Shown: one piece after another, positions 7,945-29,514 of the stretch
Position numbering within the stretch: position 1 is the first letter of the stretch
Layout of the letters: each line of letters opens with the position of its first letter
Source: a bacterium
Lineage (GTDB): Bacteria; UBA8248
NCBI GenBank assembly: GCA_965202625.1
Contig: CBDBBI010000010.1
Coordinates: 2,528,001-2,592,000 of the forward strand
Direction: 5' to 3'
DNA length: 64,000 nucleotides
Position numbers and translations under genes: made by a program
Notes under the pieces: model-generated
Told to the model about the DNA's origin: nothing
What the model saw: only the letters and a program-made list of their open reading frames with translations
Database searches by the model: none

Positions 7945-8826
7945 ATGAGCACCTCCACCCTTTCGGTTCTCTTCTCGCTGTCCACCGCGTTGGTGGTCGG
8001 CTCCTTCTCCTTGTTCGTCAGAAGCGGACAGCGGCACGCGAACGCGGTCTCCGGCGTTCTCATCGGAATCATCGTCTCTTTTCCGGCACTCCTCGCAGGA
8101 GCGGTCTGGACATGGGAGAGCGCGCATTACCAGCCTGTGGCCTGGGCGTTTTTCGGGCTGGCCGGCGTCATGGGCCCCGCGGTGGGCAGGGTGTGTTTTT
8201 TCCATTCGATTCATCGGCTGGGCGTGGCGCGCGCGGTGCCGCTCAACTCCACAATGCCGCTCTTCTCCGCGATGATCGGCATGCTCGTCCTGGACGAGGA
8301 GCCGGGGACATACGTTCTGGCCGGCACGGCGCTCATCGTCCTGGGGTGCGTGGGCATCACCTCAAGGGGGGGAGAGGCGCAGCCCGTCGGAGGGCGGCAC
8401 CTGCTCGTCGCGCTGGCGAGCGTGGTTTTTTTCTCCCTCTCGCACGTGCTGCGGAAGCTGGGCGTGGGGCCCGCGCCCAATCCGTTTTTGGGGATATCCA
8501 TCATGAGCGTCTCGGGCGGCGTATGCCTCTACGTTTTCGGGCAATATCTGCCCGCGGCCCTCAGACCTTCCCTCAACGTGAAAAGGGCCTGGGCGGCATA
8601 CAGCATCGGCGGCGCGCTGAACGCCCTTGCGGTTCTCTTCCACCTCTATGGCCTTCGCTACGGAGACCTCACCATCGTCATTCCGCTCTCTGCGACCGCC
8701 CCCTTGTGGGCGCTGCTGTTCACGGCCATCTTCTTGCGCAAGCGCGAGCGCATCACCTGGCCGATCCTTCTGGGCACGGCGGCGGTGGTCGCAGGCGGCG
8801 TCCTGGTGGCGGGCCGCGCCCTCTGA
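7945..8826 (+). CDS. DMT/EamA family transporter
   Basis: About 10 TM helices in two EamA-like repeats, 293 aa. Confidence 0.85.
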   Translation: MSTSTLSVLFSLSTALVVGSFSLFVRSGQRHANAVSGVLIGIIVSFPALLAGAVWTWESAHYQPVAWAFFGLAGVMGPAVGRVCFFHSIHRLGVARAVPLNSTMPLFSAMIGMLVLDEEPGTYVLAGTALIVLGCVGITSRGGEAQPVGGRHLLVALASVVFFSLSHVLRKLGVGPAPNPFLGISIMSVSGGVCLYVFGQYLPAALRPSLNVKRAWAAYSIGGALNALAVLFHLYGLRYGDLTIVIPLSATAPLWALLFTAIFLRKRERITWPILLGTAAVVAGGVLVAGRAL

Positions 8827-8998
8827 GGAGGCGAAAACCCGCGCGTTTTGGTATAAGCCGGGCTCCACGACCGGTTTCTTCCGGTCCGCCGGCGGCGCAC
8901 GGTGGGGTGTCTCTCAGAGCAGCGTCCAGGCGAAAGACTGCCCTGCGCGTATTGACGCAAGGGGGCGTTTTTAAAAATTTTTCGAGGGGGAATGCGCA

Positions 8999-9382
8999 AT
9001 GAAATACGTCTGCAGGGTTTTTGGAGTTTTTGCGTTAGGCGTTTTTTTTGCGGCGACTCTCGCCATGGGCGCGGATGCGGTCGGCGGCCGCATCGCGCTC
9101 CACCTCGCGGGCGGGGAGGTGCAGGGCGGGCGAAAGGTGGTGCGCGTGAAGCAGGGGGAGGGGGTGCGGCTTGCGCTGACGTCCGATCTGCGCGCCGAAG
9201 TACACCTCCACGGCTACGACCTGGAAAGGGAGGTGCGGCCGGGCGAGGTCGCCGTGATGGAATTTCGCGCCAGAGTGGCGGGCCGGTTTCCCGCAACCCT
9301 GCACGCTTCCCACTCCCATGAACCGGCAAAGGGCGGTGCCCACGGAGAGAAAGTGCTGTTCTATCTGGAGGTGCATCCATGA
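8999..9382 (+). CDS. Secreted cupredoxin-like domain protein
   Basis: Signal peptide, VRVKQGEGVRL, EVHLHGYD, GRFP and a His-rich C-terminal loop. Confidence 0.7.
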   Translation: MKYVCRVFGVFALGVFFAATLAMGADAVGGRIALHLAGGEVQGGRKVVRVKQGEGVRLALTSDLRAEVHLHGYDLEREVRPGEVAVMEFRARVAGRFPATLHASHSHEPAKGGAHGEKVLFYLEVHP

Positions 9383-10851
9383 CGCGGGCGGGCTTCATGA
9401 GGCTTTTCGTTCTGGCTGCCGGACTCGCCGCCGCCGTTTCTCTTCCCTCCTTCGCGTCGGCCCATGGGTTCGGCCAAAGATACGATCTGCCCGTGCCTCT
9501 GGGGTTGTTCATGCTCGGGGCGGGCGCGTCCGTTGCGCTCTCGTTTCTGGGAGTGGGTCTTTTCGTGCGCGCGGGGCGCAGAGGCGCGGATTATCCGCGC
9601 TGCGATCTCCTCGGTTCCCCGTTCACCTCGTGGATGGGCGGTGCGCGTCTCCTCTCGTCTATCAGGGCGCTTTCCTTGCTCTTGTTTGTCCTGACGCTGG
9701 CGGCGGGTCTGTGGGGAACCGAAAATCCGGAAAAAAACCTCGCTCCCACCATGGTCTGGATCGTCTGGTGGGTGGGCCTGGCCTACGTCTGCGCGCTGGC
9801 GGGGAACCTGTGGGCGCTGGTAAATCCCTGGGAGATCGCGTTTTCCTGGGCGGAGGCGCTCTACCGAAAAATGCGTCCGGGCGATTCCCTCTCGCTCGAG
9901 CACCCCTACCCTGAACGCCTGGGCGCCTGGCCGGCGCTGTGCCTGTTCCTGTGGTTCGCCTGGGCCGAGATCGTCTGGCCGTATAACGACCTCCCCCGTA
10001 ATATCGCGCTCGCCGCTCTGGGCTATTCCGTCATCACCTGGGCGGGTATGTACGTCTATGGCAAAAGGGCGTGGCTCGAAGGGGGCGAGGCGTTCTCCGT
10101 CATCTTCGGCGTGATGAGCCGCTTCTCCAGCACCGAGGCGGGTGCGAACGGGGATGGGGACGCGCGCGGGCGGTGGCGGCTCAGACCCCCGGCCGTGGGG
10201 CTGCTCGATGAGGATGGCGTGAGCGATTCCATGGTGGCTTTGGTGGTGTTGATGCTGTCGACGGTGAGTTTTGACGGCTTTACCGAAACCCCGCTTTGGC
10301 ACGTGATCCGCGCCGGAATATACGAGGGAGTCGCCTGGGCGGGGCGCGACGCCCTGCTCCTTGCCGACACGATTGCCCTCCTCTCCGCTCCGGTGCTGTT
10401 TCTGGGCGCGTACTACGGCTTCTGCGCCTTGATGCGCGCCATGAGCGGAAGCGCGCTCTCCACGCCTCAATTCGCGCGCCTGTTCGTGCTCTCCCTCGTG
10501 CCCATCGCGGTGGGGTATCACGTGGCGCATTATTTCTCTTTTCTTCTCGTTCAGGGGCAGCGCGTCATCGCGCTTTTGTCCGATCCTTTCGGGGCGGGCT
10601 GGAACCTGTGGGGGACGGCCGCCTACGAGATCGACATCGGCGTCATCGGCGCGAGGACGACCTGGCGCGTCTCGATAGCGGCGATCGTCATCGGCCACGT
10701 CTGCGCCGTCTATCTGGCCCACCGCACGGCGCTTCGCGCTCTGGAGAACCGCTTCGCCGCAGTGCGCAGCCAATACCCCATGCTCGTCCTCATGGTGGGC
10801 TACACCATGGCGAGCTTGTGGATCGTCGCCCAGCCGATAACGGGGGGATGA
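9379..10851 (+). CDS. Large integral membrane protein of unknown function (resembles the family often mislabelled fenitrothion hydrolase)
   Basis: AHGFGQRYDLPVP, VNPWE, STVSFDG, LVPIAVGYHVAHY and SDPFG motifs; ATGA overlap with the upstream gene. Confidence 0.75.
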   Translation: MTRAGFMRLFVLAAGLAAAVSLPSFASAHGFGQRYDLPVPLGLFMLGAGASVALSFLGVGLFVRAGRRGADYPRCDLLGSPFTSWMGGARLLSSIRALSLLLFVLTLAAGLWGTENPEKNLAPTMVWIVWWVGLAYVCALAGNLWALVNPWEIAFSWAEALYRKMRPGDSLSLEHPYPERLGAWPALCLFLWFAWAEIVWPYNDLPRNIALAALGYSVITWAGMYVYGKRAWLEGGEAFSVIFGVMSRFSSTEAGANGDGDARGRWRLRPPAVGLLDEDGVSDSMVALVVLMLSTVSFDGFTETPLWHVIRAGIYEGVAWAGRDALLLADTIALLSAPVLFLGAYYGFCALMRAMSGSALSTPQFARLFVLSLVPIAVGYHVAHYFSFLLVQGQRVIALLSDPFGAGWNLWGTAAYEIDIGVIGARTTWRVSIAAIVIGHVCAVYLAHRTALRALENRFAAVRSQYPMLVLMVGYTMASLWIVAQPITGG

Positions 10852-10932
10852 CGGCTTGCGAGGGCGCGGGTCTTCTCTTTCGCCCCTCGCGCGCCATGTC
10901 ATGGAGAGGGGGGCACCAGCCGCCGCATCGGT

Positions 10933-12225
10933 TCAGGGGAGTTCGGGCAACGCCATCCCTTCGCGTTTCGATTCCGGGAATTGTCTGCGGTAGTCCTCCA
11001 GCAATGCGCTCTTTTTCTTCGCATCCATCCTCTCGCCGGCGAGGTGGGCGATGAGATCGGTCGCCAAATTGCGATTTTTGGTGATGATTCTGCCGTCTGC
11101 GGCCCCGCCCGTCCAAAGAACGCCCTCCCACACTTTCTCGATGTTGTCTTCGGTGATCCCCCAGGGCAGGGCGTTCAAACTCTCGCACGCTTGCTGGTCG
11201 CTCATGTTGGTGGGAGCACCCGTGAGACGCAAAAAGGCGCGTACGAGACATTCCTGCCCCACAGGTTTGCCCAGCAGGTTCGCTTTCCGTATTTCTCGAC
11301 GCTTTTCGTCTCCCGATTCTCCCGATTCCTCTCGATCGCTCAGTGCATCGGCGAATACGTCGATTTCTTCCACCAGCGTTTCCCACACGCGCCGCACTTT
11401 ATCCCGGTAGAGGTGTTGTTCTTTCTTATCGGGTAGGTTGGTCGTGTCCAGTTTACCTTTAGGAAATGTCGTCTCGATAATCGCCTTGTTGCAGTTGTAG
11501 ATGATGGCCAGAGTGGTGAACTCCGGATCTCTCGGACGCAAGGTGTTGCTGGTGTATTTTGCGAGGCGTCCATCAAGCAGATCGTTGGTTATTTCGCGCG
11601 CGAGCACAGCGGCGAAATCGTCATCGTCTGTAACGATGTTTTGACCGGTCGTGATTTTTCTGGCGTATCGGTTGACGCGCGTGAAAATTTTGCGCGCTTT
11701 TTGCGGTTCGTAGGCGACCAGAATGACGGTAACGTCCTCTCGCGCCAGTTGCGCGCATGGCTCGATGCCGGAAATGTCGCGCGAAAAACCATTCTGGTCT
11801 CGCCCGGTAACGGCGAACTCAATCGCTTTCAGCCGGTGCTGTCCATCCAGTGGGACGAGCATCTCTCCTCCGGTGAAAGTGAGAAAACCCATGCCGGAAG
11901 CGGCTGTGCGATACAGGTTGGGCAAGCCTTTCGTCGTCATGTCAGATAAAGGCTCGAATAAGATTTCCTCCCCAAAGTTCATCGCTGCGACAATGATGGC
12001 GCCGAAAAAACGCGATTCATCGTTGGCCAGATACGGAGCGATTTGTTTTTTGACGCGGTTGTAGTTGATGTCGGATTGGTAGCGCTCCTCAATGGACATA
12101 TCGTCCCAACCTTCCATCTCTTTGGGAATTCTGACGCTGCTTATCAATTCCCCCGCCTTCATCGTGAGAATATAATAATCCGTGTCGCCCAACCGAGCCT
12201 TCATCGCGGCAATCGCTTTGGCCAT
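10933..12225 (-). CDS. DndB-like DGQHR-domain protein (DNA sulfur modification regulator family)
   Basis: LDGQHRL motif, YQSDINYNRV..IAPYL, FFGAIIV and IFTRVNRYAR; AAGAGG RBS. Confidence 0.85.
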   Translation of the reverse strand: MAKAIAAMKARLGDTDYYILTMKAGELISSVRIPKEMEGWDDMSIEERYQSDINYNRVKKQIAPYLANDESRFFGAIIVAAMNFGEEILFEPLSDMTTKGLPNLYRTAASGMGFLTFTGGEMLVPLDGQHRLKAIEFAVTGRDQNGFSRDISGIEPCAQLAREDVTVILVAYEPQKARKIFTRVNRYARKITTGQNIVTDDDDFAAVLAREITNDLLDGRLAKYTSNTLRPRDPEFTTLAIIYNCNKAIIETTFPKGKLDTTNLPDKKEQHLYRDKVRRVWETLVEEIDVFADALSDREESGESGDEKRREIRKANLLGKPVGQECLVRAFLRLTGAPTNMSDQQACESLNALPWGITEDNIEKVWEGVLWTGGAADGRIITKNRNLATDLIAHLAGERMDAKKKSALLEDYRRQFPESKREGMALPELP

Positions 12226-12267
12226 CCGGAACCTCTTAATGGTTGTGATGCTCGTTTTTTCTGGCCG

Positions 12268-12579
12268 CTAAAGCCGGATTAAGCGTCGCTCAAAGCGGTC
12301 AATTCTCCTTGGCTCTGGCTCCATGCGCATATAGCATATGTCCAGAAATGCGCCAAATTCCGCGATCCACAACCTGAGCGTTTCATTGTGGGAGCCGCGC
12401 CAGTGGTCCTTGAGTCGCTTTTGTATGGGTTGCCTGGGTGCCTGGCTTACGTAAACGCACTTGCCAGTCTTTCGAGACCAAAAAGCGTAAACGTCATGTG
12501 CCGAGCGCGGTATTCTGTCGATGGTGTTGTAGTCCCACCTGAAAACTTCGCGGTGCTTATCCTTCTTTTGTTGACGCAT
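12268..12579 (-). CDS. Small GIY-YIG-like endonuclease, probably damaged
   Basis: VYAF...CVYVSQA...IQKRLKDH...ERRLIRL pattern. YVG is changed to YVS and the protein stops at TAG where W-x-P-x-x-N would be expected. Confidence 0.55.
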   Translation of the reverse strand: MRQQKKDKHREVFRWDYNTIDRIPRSAHDVYAFWSRKTGKCVYVSQAPRQPIQKRLKDHWRGSHNETLRLWIAEFGAFLDICYMRMEPEPRRIDRFERRLIRL

Positions 12580-14360
12580 GAATCAAAAAGACCACACTTT
12601 CTTTGCGGCGATTCTCTCCAGCTTTTCTGCTTGGCGGCTATCGCGTCTGGCGACCACTCTTCGTGAGCAATCTGTCGGGTAAGCGCGACGGCACTACGCC
12701 CGAAAATCTCTTTCTTTCGGGCAAAGCTCGCGTTGTCGCTTTTGCCTGGCCTGTTGTCTTTCTGCCCGATCAGAGTCAGATTGCCTATCCGATGAATCCA
12801 ATGCTCAGGTTTTTGCTCCTTGAAATTCTTCCAGTCTGCCCAATGCTCTGGCGACTTGGGAAGAATATGCTCCACCGTGCAGTGGGCTTCGTTAATCAGG
12901 TCGCTGTCGCTTTGCATGTGATGGTTCACGCTGAGCAGAAAACGCTTGCTTCTTCTTCTCGCATCGCGGATTTCGATAGATTTCATTTTCTCGATGAATG
13001 TATCGTCGTCGATGATTCCGTAGGTTCCGTCGAATTCTTCTAAGGCGGCCATGACGTCAATATCGTCCAGTTTTTCGGTGGCCATGATTTTTTTCGCCAG
13101 GGCCGAAAACTCGCTCTCGAAATGCGAAGGCTCAAATTTGGGGGAGACGAAAGCCGTCCGCATGATGAAAGAGGTGATGCGTTTGAGATCAGCGTGAATG
13201 CGTTTCGCCAAACGCCTTTTTTCTCTTGTATCCGGTTCTATGACGTAGCGGCTCAACAGTGCGAACACCATCGGTTGTGCCACCTTGTAGGTTTTCAGTT
13301 CCTGAAGAAAAACGGACAGGTTTCGCTTGCGGTTATTCGAGTGGGAATGCTTTTGAAAAATTTGGATAAAATCACCCGTCATGCTTGGACTTGTGATTGT
13401 CTGGAAAAGCTCCACGCTGTCCGGGCGGGAGAATTCACTCACCAAATTATAGATATAGTTCGCTGGATTTTTGGAATCAATTACGGAGCGAATGGTGTTG
13501 CGGGTCGTCCGGTAAAAACTTTTTTGGGGCAAAAAGCCGTATTTGCACTGAAAATAGCATCGTGCGTATTCGCCCGCCTTCATGTCGTTCCTCAATTGCG
13601 CGCGCATATTTTCCAGGTTCTCGTGTACCGTGTCGCGCCGTGCTTGTTCCTCGGGTGCGTTGAAATAGGAATACATGAAATTGCGAATCAGATCCCAATC
13701 CTCAAGTTGCTTGCCTCGGCAGTTGATCGTCTCATACACGGAGTTCGGGTCTACTGCATCTGGTATGTAGAGGCACGCGACTTCAATTTTTTTGAGCAAA
13801 AATTCCATGAATCGTTTGGCGTTTTCTGGTTCCATAAGAGAGATGAATTGATCGATCTCCCGCCACGCATCGGTGAGTTTGCCGTTTGTTCCGATGCTGT
13901 CTCCGCGAATCATCAGGTTGTAGCGTGTTTTGTCGTCTCTCGGCGGCGTGAGGCGGGGTTCAAATTCGCTGACGTCGTCAAGCCGCGCCGCGTTGGTCGC
14001 ACCCAAATCGAACAAAACCTTAAGCGCGAAATACTCATATATTTGTTCGTTCGCCTCTTGAAACAAGCGACTGAGGCGCGCGCAAACGAGGGAGACCGTC
14101 ACCATGCGTTGCTGGCCGTCGTTGATTTCCCAAACTTTCGTTCCTTTTTCCACTAGCATGATCGCACCGAGAAAATAACAGTTGCGATTTTCTTTGATGG
14201 CTTCATCTATGTCCTCAAGCAATTCCCGAACGTGCTCTTTCGTCCAGTCGTATCGCCGTTGATGCCAGGGCACGACGAACTTTCCCGCGTGAAACAGGTG
14301 CGAGAAAACCCTCTGCCTCGTTGTGATGATGGTTTCTTCGGCGGCGGGCGTTGTGCTCAC
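12447..14360 (-). CDS. DUF262 (DGQQR NTPase) plus DUF1524 (HNH) nuclease, GmrSD/SspE-like; native stop probably 12583 after a 1-nt frameshift near 12623-12626
   Basis: VPWHQRRYDW, YFLGAIML, INDGQQR, YETINCRGKQL, TVEHILPKS and HRIGNLTL motifs. The GTG start overlaps the dndC-like stop (GTGA). Confidence 0.88.
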   Translation of the reverse strand: MSTTPAAEETIITTRQRVFSHLFHAGKFVVPWHQRRYDWTKEHVRELLEDIDEAIKENRNCYFLGAIMLVEKGTKVWEINDGQQRMVTVSLVCARLSRLFQEANEQIYEYFALKVLFDLGATNAARLDDVSEFEPRLTPPRDDKTRYNLMIRGDSIGTNGKLTDAWREIDQFISLMEPENAKRFMEFLLKKIEVACLYIPDAVDPNSVYETINCRGKQLEDWDLIRNFMYSYFNAPEEQARRDTVHENLENMRAQLRNDMKAGEYARCYFQCKYGFLPQKSFYRTTRNTIRSVIDSKNPANYIYNLVSEFSRPDSVELFQTITSPSMTGDFIQIFQKHSHSNNRKRNLSVFLQELKTYKVAQPMVFALLSRYVIEPDTREKRRLAKRIHADLKRITSFIMRTAFVSPKFEPSHFESEFSALAKKIMATEKLDDIDVMAALEEFDGTYGIIDDDTFIEKMKSIEIRDARRRSKRFLLSVNHHMQSDSDLINEAHCTVEHILPKSPEHWADWKNFKEQKPEHWIHRIGNLTLIGQKDNRPGKSDNASFARKKEIFGRSAVALTRQIAHEEWSPDAIAAKQKSWRESPQRKCGLFDSCVNKRRISTAKFSGGTTTPSTEYRARHMTFTLFGLERLASAFT

Positions 14361-15508
14361 GTGCACGCCTCGATCAGCGCTAGCCTCCCGTTTTCGCGCA
14401 CCTTGTCCACGCGCCATATCTCCTCGATCATCTCGATTTCAGACGGCAAAACGAGCCGCTCTCCGACCTCTCCCTCCAGTTCATGGAGACGGCGGAGAAT
14501 TTCGCTGCGCACCTCGAACCGAAACGGGCCCCGGACGAGGTTCCCGTTGGGCTTGAGTTTGGCCTTGCCGTCCCGTCGCACGGGCATTCGGTTCTCGTTG
14601 TTCTCGCGCAATTCGATGAGCCATTCCCGGAAATCCGCCAATGCCTCGAATTTCTCCTCCTCTTCATGCCCGGCGGCGATGATGCCGCGCAGGCTCCTGT
14701 CTTTCTTGATGACGGTACACGTCCAGCAACCAAAACGCGGCGAGGTCGTTCCGCACGATGGCGCGTCCTCTTTCGTCAGCACGAGCGGGCAGTCGCCGCC
14801 GCCTGCGTTGCGATAGAGGGTGATCAGGTTGCGGTGGGTGCCGCCCCAGGGCGGGTTGAGCTGCGGTAGAATCATCCACACCTCGTCGTCGCGGAGATCG
14901 GCGAGAGGTGCCCACGTGCGGCACCCCTCTATCGTTCCGTGCGGCTGCGTTTCTTCGGCCTGCACTCCGTGCTTTTCCATGTTGCGGCGTCTGTTCTGTG
15001 ATTCGCTTCTGCGCGTGCCGATCAGCAGCACTGCGCGCTTATGTCTGCGCAGGAGGTTTTCCAGTAGATGCTCGGTGGGGCGGATTTTCATCCTGTCCGT
15101 GCACCAGCGGAAATTGCGCGTGGGCGGAACGTATCCCCGGCCGATCACGTTCACCCAGAAGGTCTGATCAACGCAGGGTTTCGTAAGAGCAACGCGGACG
15201 GGCAGCACGTCCTTCTCCGCCGCCGCCCTGATGGCGTCGAGACTCTCTTTCAGATGCCGAATCACGAGGGGCGATTCGACCAGCGTATCGTTTCCGATGA
15301 CGTGCATCTCGCGTCTGCGCTCCCCTGGAGGGCAGGAAAGCATGGCTTCCCAGGCGAGATGAAGGAGCAGGGTAGAATCCTTGCCGCCCGAGTAGGCGAC
15401 CATCCACGGGTCGGCGGGCGCCTTGCGATATTCCGTCCGCATGACTTCCCGGATGGATGCAAGCCGCGCGGCTGTCTCATGGACGTTGAGCTGCGGCCCC
15501 GCGCGCAT
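14357..15508 (-). CDS. dndC: DndC-like DNA phosphorothioation sulfurtransferase (PAPS-reductase family)
   Basis: WMVAYSGGKDS PP-loop, NDTLVESP, FWVNVIGRGY, FRWCTDRMKI, GTRRSES and SCG..SPRFGCWTCTV Fe-S cysteines. Confidence 0.88.
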   Translation of the reverse strand: MRAGPQLNVHETAARLASIREVMRTEYRKAPADPWMVAYSGGKDSTLLLHLAWEAMLSCPPGERRREMHVIGNDTLVESPLVIRHLKESLDAIRAAAEKDVLPVRVALTKPCVDQTFWVNVIGRGYVPPTRNFRWCTDRMKIRPTEHLLENLLRRHKRAVLLIGTRRSESQNRRRNMEKHGVQAEETQPHGTIEGCRTWAPLADLRDDEVWMILPQLNPPWGGTHRNLITLYRNAGGGDCPLVLTKEDAPSCGTTSPRFGCWTCTVIKKDRSLRGIIAAGHEEEEKFEALADFREWLIELRENNENRMPVRRDGKAKLKPNGNLVRGPFRFEVRSEILRRLHELEGEVGERLVLPSEIEMIEEIWRVDKVRENGRLALIEACT

Positions 15509-15706
15509 TTCGTCCTCGCTGGGCGTGAACAACCCGGCTTTATGATAAAAGATTGGATCGAACCCTTAAAACCTGAATATAAGGGGAGAGGGGAGGGCGA
15601 ATCAAACGGCGCATGGCTTCAGCCCATTCCCTTGTTCGCAGGCCAGGCACGCGCGCGCCGTTTTAAGCGGAATGGATTTTCGCCCTTGCCGGGCGGAGGA
15701 GGCGCC

Positions 15707-16588
15707 ATGAACGACGCGCTGCTGGCGGCGGGTTTCGCACTGGGCACCGCGTCCATGTCCTCGGCCTTCAGCCTCGTCGCCAGGCGCGGGCAGCAGCATG
15801 GCTCGGCGATGACGGGCGTCGTCATCGGTTTGCTCGCCAACGTCCCCTGGTTGATCGTGCTCACGATTCTCACCTGGGAGCCCGCCTACTGGAGCGGAGA
15901 AGCCTGGTTTTGGTTCTTCCTATCGGGCCTCACGGGGCCCTCGCTCGGCCGCGTGTTCATGTTTCGGGCGATACACAGCCTCGGGGTGTCGCGCGCGATT
16001 CCCCTCATGGCGGCGAATCCGCTTTTCTCCGCCGTCTTCGCCTACTTCTTCCTCGGCGAGCGGCCAGGGGCTTACGTCTGGGCGGGAATCGTCCTGGTCG
16101 TCCTGGGCTGCGTCGGCATCACCTATCAGCGCAAGAGCGACGCACCCTGGGACAGGCGCGCCATCTGGCTGCCCCTGATGGCCGTTTTAGGGTTCTCCAT
16201 CTCCAACATATTCCGAAAGGTCGGAATCGATCTCGTCCCCTCGGCGCTTCTGGGCATCACGCTCACCAGCGTTTTCGGTCTCGCCGCCCTGCTCGCCCTC
16301 CTGCCGCTTTTGCCCAAAGCCCAGCGCCCATCTCTGGGGTGGGGACGCGCCTGGCATTTTTACGGTCCCTGCGGGTTGCTCAACACCCTGGCGTTTCTGA
16401 GCCATTTCGCCGCCTTGAAGTATGGAGACGTATCGGTCGTATCGCCGCTTTCCTCCACGGCACCTCTCTTCGCGCTCCTGTTCACCTGGATGTTTTTGCG
16501 CGATGTGGAGCGCATCACGCTCCCCATCGTGCTGGGGACGGTCTGCACCGTGGCGGGAGGGGTGCTCATCGCTCTGCAAGCGATGTAG
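15707..16588 (+). CDS. DMT/EamA family transporter, paralogue of 7945..8826
   Basis: GGAGGAGG RBS before ATG 15707, 293 aa, motifs shared with 7945..8826. Confidence 0.85.
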   Translation: MNDALLAAGFALGTASMSSAFSLVARRGQQHGSAMTGVVIGLLANVPWLIVLTILTWEPAYWSGEAWFWFFLSGLTGPSLGRVFMFRAIHSLGVSRAIPLMAANPLFSAVFAYFFLGERPGAYVWAGIVLVVLGCVGITYQRKSDAPWDRRAIWLPLMAVLGFSISNIFRKVGIDLVPSALLGITLTSVFGLAALLALLPLLPKAQRPSLGWGRAWHFYGPCGLLNTLAFLSHFAALKYGDVSVVSPLSSTAPLFALLFTWMFLRDVERITLPIVLGTVCTVAGGVLIALQAM

Positions 16589-18439: not shown

Positions 18440-19048
18440 GTGAATATAGACTTGATACGCGCGGTGAACGCGCATTTTCAACCCTTCTACGCTTACGTGG
18501 CGGAGGAGGTGCACGCCGAATACGGGCGAAATGCAGGATGCGTTCTGGAGGTCGGCCCCTATGGCCCGGGCGTGGCGCTCGCCCTGGCCGAGCGGTGTCC
18601 CGAGATGCGCTTCACGTGCGGGGACGAGGCGGACGCCGTGAACGATTATCTGGCCGAGCGGATAGCCGAGGCGGGAATGCCCTCGCGCGTGCGGGTGCGG
18701 CGGCTGGACAAGCGTTGCCTGCCGTTCGACCCGGCTTCGTTCGACCTCGTCGTCTTTCGGGGCGGGCTTTTCTTCTGGGATGGGCAGGAGAGGATCATCG
18801 CGGAGATGCACCGCGTTTTGCGGCCCGGCGGCCTGGGCGCCCACGGCGGCGGGTTCGGCGCCGGCGCGCCGGACGCCCTCATTGAGGCGCTGCTGCCCAG
18901 GGCGCGCGCGCTGAACGATAGGCTGGGCAAAAAGCGCCTCTCACGCACCGAGACGGAAAGGATCGCCCAAAGCGCAGGCATCGGAGATTCCGCCCGCATC
19001 AAGGCGAAGCATGGACTCTGGATGTATTGGAAGAAGGACGTTGAATAA
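18440..19048 (+). CDS. Class I SAM-dependent methyltransferase
   Basis: LEVGPYGPG, LPFDPASFDLV and EMHRVLRPGG motifs. Confidence 0.85.
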   Translation: MNIDLIRAVNAHFQPFYAYVAEEVHAEYGRNAGCVLEVGPYGPGVALALAERCPEMRFTCGDEADAVNDYLAERIAEAGMPSRVRVRRLDKRCLPFDPASFDLVVFRGGLFFWDGQERIIAEMHRVLRPGGLGAHGGGFGAGAPDALIEALLPRARALNDRLGKKRLSRTETERIAQSAGIGDSARIKAKHGLWMYWKKDVE

Positions 19049-27386: not shown

Positions 27387-28028
27387 TCAGGCAAGCGGCG
27401 GGAGCGTTCTGAGAATCGCGCGGGCCGGGGCGCCGTCGCGCCCTGTGAACAGGGCGGGCAGGGCGATGAGTTCATAGTCGCCCTCTGGCGCGTTCGCCAG
27501 GTTCAATCCTTCCAGTAGGACGACCCCCTCGGGCATCAGAAGCAGGTGGACGGGGCCGCCGCTTTTGGGCGCGTCCACGGAGAGGTAGTCCACGCCCAGG
27601 AGCGCCATTCCGTTTTCGAGCAGCAGCTGGGCGGCTTCGCGCGTCATGTGGCAAAAATGGGGGTCGAACGGCTTTTCCCACCACCTGTTTTCCGAGTTGC
27701 GCGTCTTGATCAAAAAGCGCGTCGCGCCGCTGAGGTTCTTGGTCTTCAGCTCCTCCGCGCTCACGCGTTCGGGATTTTCTATCTCTATCACCCGGGCGGG
27801 GCCCGCCAAGGTTTCCAGGGGGAGCGTCTCGATTCCGCCCGCACCCGGCAAATAGTGCATGGGCGCGTCCAGATGCGTGCCGGTGTGCGCGCCGAAGACG
27901 GCTTCCGTGAGGCAGACGGAATCCCCCGCCTCGAAGGATGCGTGAAAGCGCATTTCCAGCCCCGGATTCCCCGGCCAGATGGGCATTTTTCCTTGCCGCA
28001 CGGGAACAGAGATGTCGATGATGTTCAT
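27387..28028 (-). CDS. Cyclase family protein (kynurenine formamidase-like)
   Basis: HTGTHLDAP, GVDYLSVD and DGAPARA motifs. Confidence 0.88.
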   Translation of the reverse strand: MNIIDISVPVRQGKMPIWPGNPGLEMRFHASFEAGDSVCLTEAVFGAHTGTHLDAPMHYLPGAGGIETLPLETLAGPARVIEIENPERVSAEELKTKNLSGATRFLIKTRNSENRWWEKPFDPHFCHMTREAAQLLLENGMALLGVDYLSVDAPKSGGPVHLLLMPEGVVLLEGLNLANAPEGDYELIALPALFTGRDGAPARAILRTLPPLA

Positions 28029-28217
28029 GCGCGCTCCTCAGGTGGGATCAAAAACAATCAGAGTAGCATTAGAATATCAAGAATATCAAAAAACGGCCGA
28101 AAATTTCCAGATAGCGATTTTCGCACGCGCTCCGCATCCGATTCTTTGTCCTGATTTTCAGTCTTGCGTAAGAAAAAGTTGAGTTGAGAGACTCGTCAAG
28201 GAAGGTTTGGCAACAAA

Positions 28218-28712
28218 TTACGCATCTGCATTCTCATATACGACTTTCCCGTTTTGTTGTGCCCATTTCACGGACAGGCTTACATGCGAGATAGCGTTTC
28301 TACTTTTGTCTAATTGACGTTTGGTTTCGTTAAGGACAATTTCTGGCGCTATCTCATATATGATTTTGCATTTTATTTGGTTCGATTCATAAAATACGGC
28401 TAAATATATTTTTGAATTTCTGGTTATTCTGTTTAAGGATTCGTTCCGTTTGTTCAGTGGCTCCTTGAACATTCTATCAAATTGGCCGCTTCCGTCTTCT
28501 TTGCAAGAGAGATACTCATATTTCTTGTTCGGGTCATCGGGAGCGTGGGCGTCCGCATCGCGTTTCGAGTGAATTAACTCGTGTCCCAATAAATCGGCGA
28601 TGATCATTTCTTTTACCAGTCCTGGTTGCAATAGGTTAGGAATACCTATCAATCGCGCCTGCTCCGCCGCTTTTAATATAAGATTTATGATTTCATGATA
28701 TATTTTTCTCAC
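28218..28712 (-). CDS. Putative PvuII-like type II restriction endonuclease
   Basis: 164 aa. GIPNLLQ..K, DA..YE and SLSVKWAQQNGKVVY recall R.PvuII; AT-rich and directly downstream of an MTase. Confidence 0.6.
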   Translation of the reverse strand: MRKIYHEIINLILKAAEQARLIGIPNLLQPGLVKEMIIADLLGHELIHSKRDADAHAPDDPNKKYEYLSCKEDGSGQFDRMFKEPLNKRNESLNRITRNSKIYLAVFYESNQIKCKIIYEIAPEIVLNETKRQLDKSRNAISHVSLSVKWAQQNGKVVYENADA

Positions 28713-28719
28713 GGTAGAG

Positions 28720-29514
28720 TTAAAGTAAACTCTGTATTGATTGACGCTTTGCTTCTTTCAACCTTTCGTTTGCAATGGCAACAAAAGGTTCGTGTTTTTC
28801 AATGCCAATAAATCGTCTGCCAAGTTTCTGGCATATTACGGAACACGTCCCCACACCCGCAAACGGATCGAGCACAAGTTCACCCTTCCTTGAACTTGCT
28901 CTCACCAATCTTTCCATCAACTTCTCAGGTTTTTGTATGGTGTTTAGAACTTTGCGACTCGCAAGCTCCTTTGACTTGTAAGTTAATTGTTTAATATCTC
29001 CCCAAACGTCTCCAGGGTTCTTTCCTTGAGCGTTGAATTTTGTTTTGCCGAATTTTCCGTTGGCAACGGAAGGGACACGTTCGCACCTAAGTCTGTGTTC
29101 CAGTTCCACAAGCTGTTTCACCCGAATTGCATCGAGATCAAAAATCTTTGGTCTGTCCCCTTTGATGAAGTAGCATATTATGTCGTAGTTGTTCGTATAG
29201 TTGATTCTGCCTTGAGACAATCTGCCAGGCTGAAACCAGACAATTTTTGATTGCAGGTTGAGATATGGCCGATAATCAATGAAGTCTATGCAGTTTGGTT
29301 TTCCAAACAGATACAATGCGCCACCATCTTTTAATTTTGAGGCAAATATCTTGATCAGGCGCAGGTTGAACTCTTGAACGTCGCTTACCTTGTCCCATTC
29401 ATTCGTAGTTACGCCATAAGGCCCATCACAAATGATCAGATCAAAAATTCCATCATTCATTTTTGAAAACAAGTCGAACGCGTTGGCATGGTAAACGCGA
29501 TTCACTTCCATCAT
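28720..29514 (-). CDS. Beta-class N4/N6 DNA methyltransferase
   Basis: DLIICDGPY (variant motif IV), NPGDVW, QKPEKL and LDPFAGVGT (motif I). Confidence 0.9.
   Translation of the reverse strand: MMEVNRVYHANAFDLFSKMNDGIFDLIICDGPYGVTTNEWDKVSDVQEFNLRLIKIFASKLKDGGALYLFGKPNCIDFIDYRPYLNLQSKIVWFQPGRLSQGRINYTNNYDIICYFIKGDRPKIFDLDAIRVKQLVELEHRLRCERVPSVANGKFGKTKFNAQGKNPGDVWGDIKQLTYKSKELASRKVLNTIQKPEKLMERLVRASSRKGELVLDPFAGVGTCSVICQKLGRRFIGIEKHEPFVAIANERLKEAKRQSIQSLL

Follow-up and report, generated by a model that had tools for sequence, protein, structure and literature searches.

DNA phosphorothioation (PT) is, to our knowledge, the only natural modification of the DNA backbone. The route by which its sulfur is inserted is an open question, as is how a partial modification can still mark DNA as "self." The TdpABC system, reportedly described by An et al. 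in Nat Chem Biol in 2025, is said to occur in extreme thermophiles and to have as restriction partners TdpA and TdpB, a hexameric ATPase and a nuclease, rather than a GmrSD-like protein. In SspABCD-SspE, a writer of the PAPS-reductase family is combined with SspE, a PT-sensing nickase made up of DUF262 and DUF1524 domains. IscS-DndBCDE of Salmonella enterica Cerro 87 is partnered by DndI, which has the same two domains (PMC11662687; this and the other papers are cited here from excerpts). We have analyzed a 64,000-nucleotide stretch of a bacterial genome of the GTDB lineage UBA8248 (assembly GCA_965202625.1, contig CBDBBI010000010.1, forward-strand positions 2,528,001 to 2,592,000; hereafter the window), which holds a cassette of four genes encoding a short DndC, a GmrSD-like DUF262+DUF1524 protein, a small GIY-YIG nuclease-like protein and a DGQHR-domain protein. 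The cassette is real and recurrent, not a one-off remnant, and to judge from its sequence it belongs to a widespread and as yet uncharacterized family of PT defense systems built around a short DndC.

The four tightly packed, co-oriented open reading frames (ORFs) lie on the minus strand within window positions 10933-15532. The first is open from a TTG (14357..15532, 391 aa), and its product, a compact DndC-type PAPS-reductase/PP-loop sulfurtransferase, is read from the ATG at 15508 (14357..15508, 383 aa), which is also the length of its copy in the protein collection. Its stop codon (TGA 14359-14357) overlaps the GTG start (14360-14358) of the GmrSD-like gene as GTGA, as the initial annotation had reported. 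The GmrSD-like gene runs as read from this GTG to 12447 (12447..14360, in an ORF of 656 aa, 12447..14417) and combines a ParB/Srx-type NTPase domain (DUF262, DGQQR) with an HNH domain (DUF1524). Behind it stand the GIY-YIG gene, of 103 codons (12268..12579), and the DGQHR gene (10933..12225, 430 aa), the latter belonging to the Pfam "DndB" family in the broad sense. All motifs listed in the initial annotation are found in the translations: SGGKDS, RWCTDRMK and RFGCWTC in DndC, DGQQR, EHILP and GNLTL in the GmrSD-like protein, and DGQHR in the fourth. Its description of the cassette as complete as seen, between unrelated flanks, also stands, the neighbors being EamA transporters on either side and two proteins without a Pfam family.

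DndC matches the equivalog model TIGR03183 with 319.4 bits (cut-off 290.4), over profile positions 11-346 of 447 only, and the PADLOC DndC model at 1.8e-104 (positions 10-376 of 481), roughly the last 100 positions of these family profiles being missing from the protein. On the PADLOC SspD model it scores just 29.2 bits. The PP-loop SGGKDS and Cys144, 248, 260, 269 and 272 are invariant among 22 homologs of 63-78% identity. The predicted model has a mean local confidence (pLDDT) of 69, with a low-scoring Cys-rich stretch at 238-281, and its nearest folds are the FAD synthase PAPS domain, TtuA, NcsA and APS/PAPS reductases (E 3e-5 to 1e-4), so the fold, as modeled, would resemble [4Fe-4S]-dependent thiolases and PAPS reductases. 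Sequence searches of the PDB with the single sequence and with a profile gave nothing meaningful, and neither by sequence nor by fold was a DndC or TdpC structure recovered. Homologs in the protein collection number more than 6000, the best 120 being 361-416 aa long and 64-100% identical to the window protein. A library clustered at 50% identity holds many further short homologs as well as longer ones (~450-550 aa), which align to DndC residues ~24-376 and then extend by at least 100 residues.

Short DndC proteins are also encoded on plasmids of cultured bacteria (355 and 375 aa, 49% and 42% identity; Mesorhizobium amorphae pM0123d and Burkholderia glumae). The Mesorhizobium plasmid has a cysteine desulfurase upstream and then, in order, DndC, an AAA ATPase, a DndE-family protein, a small protein, a second AAA ATPase and an FtsK-like protein; the order in B. 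glumae is DndC, a small protein, a gene annotated as DndD and an FtsK-like translocase. Since relatives equally short at 42-49% identity adjoin DndD/E-like genes, length was rejected as a mark of independence from DndD and DndE.

The GmrSD-like protein passes the Pfam cut-offs for both of its domains (GmrSD_N, 87.2 bits against 33.2; GmrSD_C, 79.0 against 23). Its best PADLOC model is HEC-06 (PDLC04157), with 221.1 bits over residues 30-599 and profile positions 6-546 of 558, followed by lower scores on the models "Orf5" (184 bits) and SspE (60.8 bits, in two stretches, the better N-terminal). Among solved structures, sequence matches were obtained to DndI (9jfl, E 6.5e-7, residues 38-121) and to the HNH part of SspE (6jiv, E 7.7e-6). 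The DGQQR and EH/N/N columns are invariant in 29 homologs. These homologs end in a conserved helix and ...VW(S/T)F*, from which the window copy departs after ...WSPDAIAA. At an A4 run on the minus strand (12623..12626), one added A restores the family C-terminal helix and stop: the alternative frame gives the family ending and reaches a TGA at 12585-12583, 3 nt ahead of the GIY-YIG start codon at 12579, where the initial annotation had placed the likely native stop of the nuclease. The effect of the frameshift is to replace the last ~18 residues and to add a 58-residue tail that overlaps the GIY-YIG gene. Public runs were compared as assembled contigs rather than reads, and run X1 may be the source sample. 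Contigs of runs labeled sponge metagenome carry parts of the window sequence at 90-99% identity. The extra base behind 12622 occurs in one minor contig of X1 (depth 2 of 7.1). The frameshifted form is that of the major X1 contigs, and X4 and X6, runs of a second study labeled sponge metagenome, have contigs with it as well. The genome carries a second, distant GmrSD-like gene (G000:C10:613369-615050), apparently split into ORFs of 226 and 437 aa.

How does this locus compare with the described systems? It shares with IscS-DndBCDE-DndI a DndC-type writer, sulfur from a desulfurase and one DUF262 (DGQQR) plus DUF1524 (HNH) partner, and DndI (PDB 9JFL) is the best sequence match among solved structures (PMC11662687). 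However, the window is without DndD, DndE or a true DndB (for DndE, the control genomes gave no match either), the GmrSD-like protein resembles DndI over residues 38-121 only, the partner stands directly behind dndC rather than in a dndFGHI operon, and a GIY-YIG + DGQHR pair is added. The likeness to SspABCD-SspE lies in the union of a PAPS-reductase-family writer with a DUF262+DUF1524 nickase, and in the presence of GIY-YIG + DGQHR beside SspBCD in metagenomes; yet the window writer is of DndC type, and its partner is matched far better by the HEC-06 than by the SspE model. Tdp offers the sole precedent for writing by a DndC-type protein alone, as tdpC is stated to suffice for PT with neither DndD nor DndE (PMC12914056). 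The HEC-06/GmrSD/BrxU Type IV family has the same domain architecture and the same DGQQR and EH...N...N motifs, and the HEC-06 match is full length, but its members target modified phage DNA by themselves or in the company of BREX, HEC-06 defending on its own in E. coli (bioRxiv 10.1101/2024.01.29.577857), whereas the window gene is locked to a DNA-modifying enzyme. Finally, the plasmid clusters of M. amorphae and B. glumae have a DndC of like length, and their small + AAA + FtsK-like module is shared with two relatives of the cassette (L028 and L048, below). They differ in what stands behind DndC, an AAA ATPase and a DndE-family protein in the former and a DndD-annotated gene and FtsK-like protein in the latter, and neither has a GmrSD-like gene.

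The initial annotation had set the architecture outside Dnd, Ssp, Pbe and Tdp. This was too strong: DndI is known (PMC11662687), and a dndC-DUF262 neighborhood has been named as a potential undescribed PT system in a survey that required a P-loop NTPase nearby (PMC12914056). The GIY-YIG/DGQHR form differs from what that survey required in having no P-loop NTPase neighbor. Within the excerpts of literature covered, largely outside subscription journals, neither a GIY-YIG + DGQHR pair nor a DndC + GmrSD system lacking DndD/E was found described, although such arrangements may already be on record in Table S2 of PMC8092258 and in the supplementary neighborhood tables of PMC12914056. In sponge archaea, dnd-like and DUF262/DUF1524 genes have been noted (PMC6790972).

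Recurrence is the main argument for the family. A locus scan with the single DndC sequence found no relative; an alignment-based scan in which each species was represented by a single genome yielded 130 relatives, and 80 loci were retained from these and compared by ORF clustering and tblastn. These loci span 11 named phyla, with five lacking a phylum label. The GmrSD-like gene lies directly downstream of DndC and co-oriented with it in 66 of the 80 (65 full length) and is present in some form in 73. Directly upstream of DndC, 57 of the 80 have a cysteine desulfurase (Pfam Aminotran_5, 4e-80; PADLOC SspA 488 and DndA 480 bits), a gene that had not been foreseen in the initial annotation. The form seen in the window, without the desulfurase, recurs in seven loci (L003, L004, L006, L011, L013, L024 and L067), and with it in 13 more. 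In none of the 80 closest loci does DndD or DndE stand at the position of the cassette, nor does any family of DndD size recur. The cassette as a deletion remnant of a canonical dnd operon, an outcome that the initial annotation had allowed for, was rejected, as these loci are without DndD/E while their DndC is highly conserved.

Within the genome of the window (3.09 Mb, 99.69% complete, one DndC), no match to DndD (TIGR03185) was found among 18 candidates scored. DndE (TIGR03184) and SspB/DUF4007 gave no match either, though control genomes were equally silent for both, and no genome search for SspC was made. DndD exceeded its cut-off in none of ten genomes holding related cassettes (best sub-threshold score 116.8 bits, far from the locus), and tblastn with the DndE of the Mesorhizobium plasmid was negative in all 84 sequences searched, with no bona fide DndD there either. 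A borderline Pfam DndE domain (25.1 against 25) occurs in the FtsK-like protein of L028. Of the absences claimed in the initial annotation, that of DndD holds for the genome, and those of DndE, SspB and SspC for the locus as seen. Its suggestion that sulfur comes from a host IscS needs qualifying: with no desulfurase in cis, the window cassette would have to draw on one of two strong matches elsewhere on the chromosome (426 and 373 bits to TIGR03235, below the equivalog cut-off of 480), but the usual form of the family has its own DndA/SspA-like enzyme in cis.

Behind the core, a third slot holds GIY-YIG + DGQHR in 23 of the 80 loci and a module of SNF2, ParB and MBL genes in 40, never both. 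This label changes at least 10 times on the DndC tree (81 rows). Distance matrices fall into correlated blocks, namely desulfurase-DndC-GmrSD (0.81-0.86), GIY-YIG/DGQHR (0.80) and SNF2 with its partners (0.82-0.87). DndC itself correlates with the desulfurase at 0.86 and with the GmrSD-like gene at 0.83, compared with 0.51 for GIY-YIG and 0.43 for DGQHR; kinship inflates all such values, and it is the contrast between blocks that counts. The GmrSD-like protein diverges fastest (mean distance 0.55 vs. 0.37 for DndC), and among the 73 loci with some form of its gene, 8 have a visibly disrupted copy beside an intact DndC.

Other occupants of these positions deserve mention in their own right. The SNF2 module (L007, L017, L020 and 37 other loci, e.g., L054:11006-14981) comprises four conserved genes behind the DndC-GmrSD core, for an SNF2 helicase of ~470 aa (DpdE/ZorD-like in PADLOC), a ParB_N protein of ~275 aa, a ParB-HTH-like protein of ~240 aa and an MBL-fold-like protein of ~345 aa with HxHxDH. 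It looks like an uncharacterized PT-linked effector module; its identification as PbeABCD was rejected because the Pbe domains differ (PMC6459918). The third slot of L028 (11094-14836) and, on the opposite strand, of L048 (~8240-11934) encodes a small protein together with a PbeC/DndD-like ATPase of 678 aa and an SspH/FtsK-like protein of 499 aa. This module follows the desulfurase-DndC-GmrSD core and is homologous to the second module of the dnd cluster on M. amorphae pM0123d. In L002 (9203-12137) and L080 (9181-10332) an HNH_4 endonuclease of 381-384 aa takes the place of the GmrSD-like gene behind DndC, and L002, from a congener, adds an AAA ATPase of 546 aa, in DNA of 37-50% GC. In three loci without a GmrSD-like gene (L002, L080 and L039), another HNH gene adjoins DndC, twice together with an AAA ATPase.

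The two genes that complete the window cassette form a pair. The GIY-YIG protein falls below the Pfam cut-offs (19.3 against 22.4; 18.6 against 22.6), and its matches by feature to GIY-YIG clusters in the Atlas (0.94-0.96) are leads only. Its catalytic pattern (GIY, YIG, Arg, His, Glu and Asn) is conserved across 22 aligned homologs, in which Y43, R55 and E97 are invariant and Y31, H59 and the Asn of PEAN nearly so. The window copy stops at a TAG (12270-12268) where homologs have Trp (TGG). Past this codon, which had gone unremarked in the initial annotation and is confirmed only in X1, possibly the source sample, the frame continues for 10 family-like codons to a TAA at 12237-12235, and the conserved Asn is lost from the window copy. 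The DGQHR protein passes TIGR03187 (87.4 bits against 58.85) and Pfam DndB (PF14072) but fails the DndB equivalog TIGR03233, with 44.1 bits against a cut-off of 328. In its model (pLDDT 87.6) the N-terminal domain has a ParB/Srx fold, with structural alignments (VIA-align) to PadC (Z 7.3, root mean square deviation 3.0, 98 aligned residues), KorB (Z 6.2) and SspE (Z 5.0). The C-terminal helical domain has no clear structural match, and a Foldseek search with the model returned none at E <= 0.001.

A metagenome scan with an alignment of the DGQHR protein kept 80 loci. Of the 34 closest, 29 could be evaluated, and every one of these has the GIY-YIG gene directly upstream of DGQHR. When eight long metagenome loci were run through PADLOC, seven showed SspB/SspC/SspD, with or without SspA, as neighbors of the pair, and the remaining one showed PbeA/PbeC/DndA; with hidden Markov models built from locus ORFs, Ssp genes were found beside it in 9 of 10 loci with at least 4 kb of flank. 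A short metagenome contig (L100) repeats the order desulfurase-DndC-GmrSD-GIY-DGQHR. Since it adjoins both SspBCD and DndC loci, the pair associates with more than one kind of PT writer, and it does so in the position that SspE or SspFGH fill elsewhere. The initial annotation had named the fourth gene a DndB-like regulator, which is not borne out. The failure on the DndB equivalog and the tie to GIY-YIG, as a mobile pair that also accompanies SspBCD, indicate that it is no DndB orthologue and point to an effector or sensor module rather than a DndB repressor. Complex prediction with the intact pair of a congener lends weak support to a physical partnership: the modeled pair scores 0.46 (best control 0.00), with runs agreeing in at least 73% of contacts and partner pLDDT of at least 80, on a scale whose mark 58 of 80 solved complexes attain, against 2 of 110 mismatched pairs; however, only 7 of the 80 do so at 0.60 or below, as do both mismatches.

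Both sspE and sspFGH are missing from 2,211 of 2,678 sspBCD clusters, and further partners have been expected (PMC8092258). For such "orphan" SspBCD, GIY-YIG + DGQHR offers itself as a new candidate for the restriction partner. In the seven metagenome loci where SspB-SspC-SspD, with or without SspA, adjoin it (L097, L098, L101, L102, L109, L113 and L115), PADLOC found no SspE or SspFGH at E <= 1e-5 among ORFs of at least 140 aa. The possibility that the pair is itself SspFGH was rejected, as it has no PADLOC Ssp matches and SspFGH is described differently, as a Walker-A protein, a protein of unknown kind and an FtsK-like protein (PMC8092258). A different DGQHR subfamily, without a GIY-YIG partner, forms tandem arrays of two to three paralogues near a divergent dndA and canonical-length dndB-dndC (L143, L145, L147, L148, L154, L157 and L159).

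Within its order, DndC occurs in 5 of 44 genomes (the present one included), all of the genus of the window, and one is a remnant. Four of the five share one chromosomal site, with a UGSC-family gene and EamA ahead of DndC and its partners and an EF-G-like gene after them; the flanks of the fifth (G019/L092), which is on a contig of 22 kb, were left out of this comparison. Behind DndC, the window and G019/L092 have the GmrSD-like, GIY-YIG and DGQHR genes, whereas in G026/L091 the GmrSD-like gene is intact and precedes ParB_N, HTH and MBL genes without the SNF2 helicase, and G037/L002 has the HNH_4 endonuclease and AAA ATPase described above, with an intact DndC. G031/L093 retains DndC residues 6-114 alone. 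DndC shows 78% nucleotide identity between congeners, vs. 80-82% for the flanks. It thus diverges like its surroundings, so the writer is resident and the genes behind it are exchanged. GC content is 0.49-0.55 over window positions 11000-14500, the three genes downstream of DndC, ~0.62 in DndC and ~0.65 in the surroundings. EamA-family paralogues at 7945-8826 and 15695-16588 bracket the variable region, and three genes of host GC at 7945-10851 are absent from the same site in L002.

What would such a cassette do? There seems an even chance that it is a PT writer working without DndD or DndE, joined to a reader nickase like DndI or SspE and to a second reader-nuclease pair. A cysteine desulfurase would supply persulfide sulfur, in most relatives from a gene in cis and here from one of the two IscS/NifS-like genes elsewhere. 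DndC, with its PP-loop ATP-pyrophosphatase site and a putative Cys-ligated Fe-S cluster, would activate the backbone phosphate and insert the sulfur with help from neither DndD nor DndE. The translationally coupled GmrSD-like protein, through its ParB/Srx NTPase and HNH nickase, would read PT status as DndI and SspE do and nick unmodified incoming DNA. Its casting as a reader is argued from the effector roles of all its characterized relatives, DndI, SspE and HEC-06 (PMC11662687; bioRxiv 10.1101/2024.01.29.577857), its fast divergence, its frequent disruption beside an intact DndC and the survival of DndC without it in L002. GIY-YIG + DGQHR would be a second, mobile module, a ParB-like sensor with a nuclease, that plugs into SspBCD and DndC writers alike. 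In this genome, writer and DGQHR protein are intact and both nuclease genes carry 3' lesions; the restriction arm is probably weakened or decaying. Several considerations weigh against this scheme. With the exception of Tdp, all characterized PT writers depend on an ATPase as well as on a partner that nicks or recognizes DNA (reviewed in PMC12707154). Nearly every core has another nuclease or helicase module behind it, which, on the model of Dnd and Ssp operons, would put the GmrSD-like protein in the constant (writer) module. Equally short DndC proteins sit beside DndD/E-like genes, so shortness is no evidence of autonomy, and the substrate of DndC is a presumption from homology. HEC-06-type proteins defend alone, so homology does not require coupling to PT. 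Lastly, with no desulfurase in cis and two damaged genes, the window copy itself may not be functional.

In the main rival reading, the GmrSD-like protein belongs to the writer. Its NTPase and HNH nickase would replace DndD/DndE (or SspC/SspB) in serving DndC with energy and with nicking or DNA recognition, and restriction would be left to the interchangeable third-slot modules, whether GIY-YIG + DGQHR, SNF2/ParB/MBL or the small protein with its PbeC-like ATPase and SspH-like translocase. We consider this rather unlikely. In its favor, the gene takes the very position of dndD/dndE behind dndC, with stop and start overlapping, and is co-inherited with the desulfurase and DndC, as their block of correlated distances indicates. 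The third slot, by comparison, is switched repeatedly on the DndC tree, and its occupants score as the effector families PbeC, SspH, HEC-01A and MzaB. The small + AAA + FtsK module stands behind a complete desulfurase-DndC-ATPase-DndE set on the Mesorhizobium plasmid and behind the desulfurase-DndC-GmrSD core in L028 and L048. GIY-YIG + DGQHR likewise adjoins complete SspBCD writers, in the position otherwise filled by SspE or SspFGH, and in L002, L080 and L039, which have no GmrSD-like gene, DndC has a different HNH gene as its neighbor, accompanied in two cases by an AAA ATPase. Set against this, no GmrSD-family protein is known from a modification reaction, L028 has a DndD/PbeC-like ATPase in addition to its GmrSD-like gene, the gene is often broken beside an intact DndC (in 8 of 73 loci, and in the window), and Tdp provides a DndC homologue that writes alone (cited in PMC12914056).

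Very improbable, in our view, is a mere assembly of defense-island neighbors with no coupling between them, in which an orphan or epigenetic DndC, a Type IV enzyme of HEC-06 type acting by itself and a nuclease system of two genes, related to neither, happen to adjoin. HEC-06 does defend alone in E. coli (bioRxiv 10.1101/2024.01.29.577857), DndC and the genes behind it differ in GC, and the downstream content varies among congeners at one site; but adjacency in 66 of 80 loci over 11 phyla, the start/stop overlap and the correlated divergence far exceed what co-location in islands would give, and GIY-YIG + DGQHR adjoins two different kinds of PT writer. Improbable too, if less so, is that the window copy is a non-functional, decaying remnant, having lost its desulfurase in cis and suffered a frameshift and a truncation, or that the short DndC makes a modification other than PT. 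The two lesions favor decay, the frameshifted form being present in contigs of three runs from two studies, as do the DndC fragment of L093 and the scarcity of DndC in the order. Nevertheless, both 3' lesions spare all recognized domains, costing the last ~18 residues of the GmrSD-like protein and the last 10 of GIY-YIG; DndC and DGQHR are full length against homologs; a minor allele in X1 is intact; and DndC scores above its equivalog cut-off.

A few other features of the window may be recorded. A promoter-like site upstream of DndC (TTGATT-18-TATATT, 15576..15605, minus strand) is weak and not above chance, the promoter and terminator scan having yielded two promoter-like sites against 2.1 expected from shuffles. 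A second sharp dip in GC, at ~27500-29500 (0.41-0.42 vs. ~0.65 around it), may mark another acquired island. ARAGORN reports an odd "tRNA-???" with a two-base anticodon at 18655-18746, within a Methyltransf_25 ORF (18440-19048), which is probably a false positive.

More speculatively, and at a likelihood we would put low, the trio of desulfurase, short DndC and GmrSD-like protein would be a new minimal PT writer, in which a fused ParB-type NTPase/HNH nickase does the jobs of DndD/DndE or SspB/SspC, and GIY-YIG + DGQHR a portable PT-reader nuclease, hitherto unrecognized, serving SspBCD and DndC; gene transfer would have carried the kit through communities of symbionts from at least 11 phyla. 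If so, the pair would be one of the "missing" restriction partners of sspBCD clusters that have neither sspE nor sspFGH, ~84% of all such clusters according to PMC8092258. A DndC conserved in 11 phyla without DndD/DndE also affords a clean genetic test: either it writes PT alone, or the ParB/HNH protein substitutes for the ATPase and nicking partners. The family may, moreover, account for an earlier finding from sponge metagenomes, in which PT genes proved to be enriched "even though not functionally complete" (PMC5099237).

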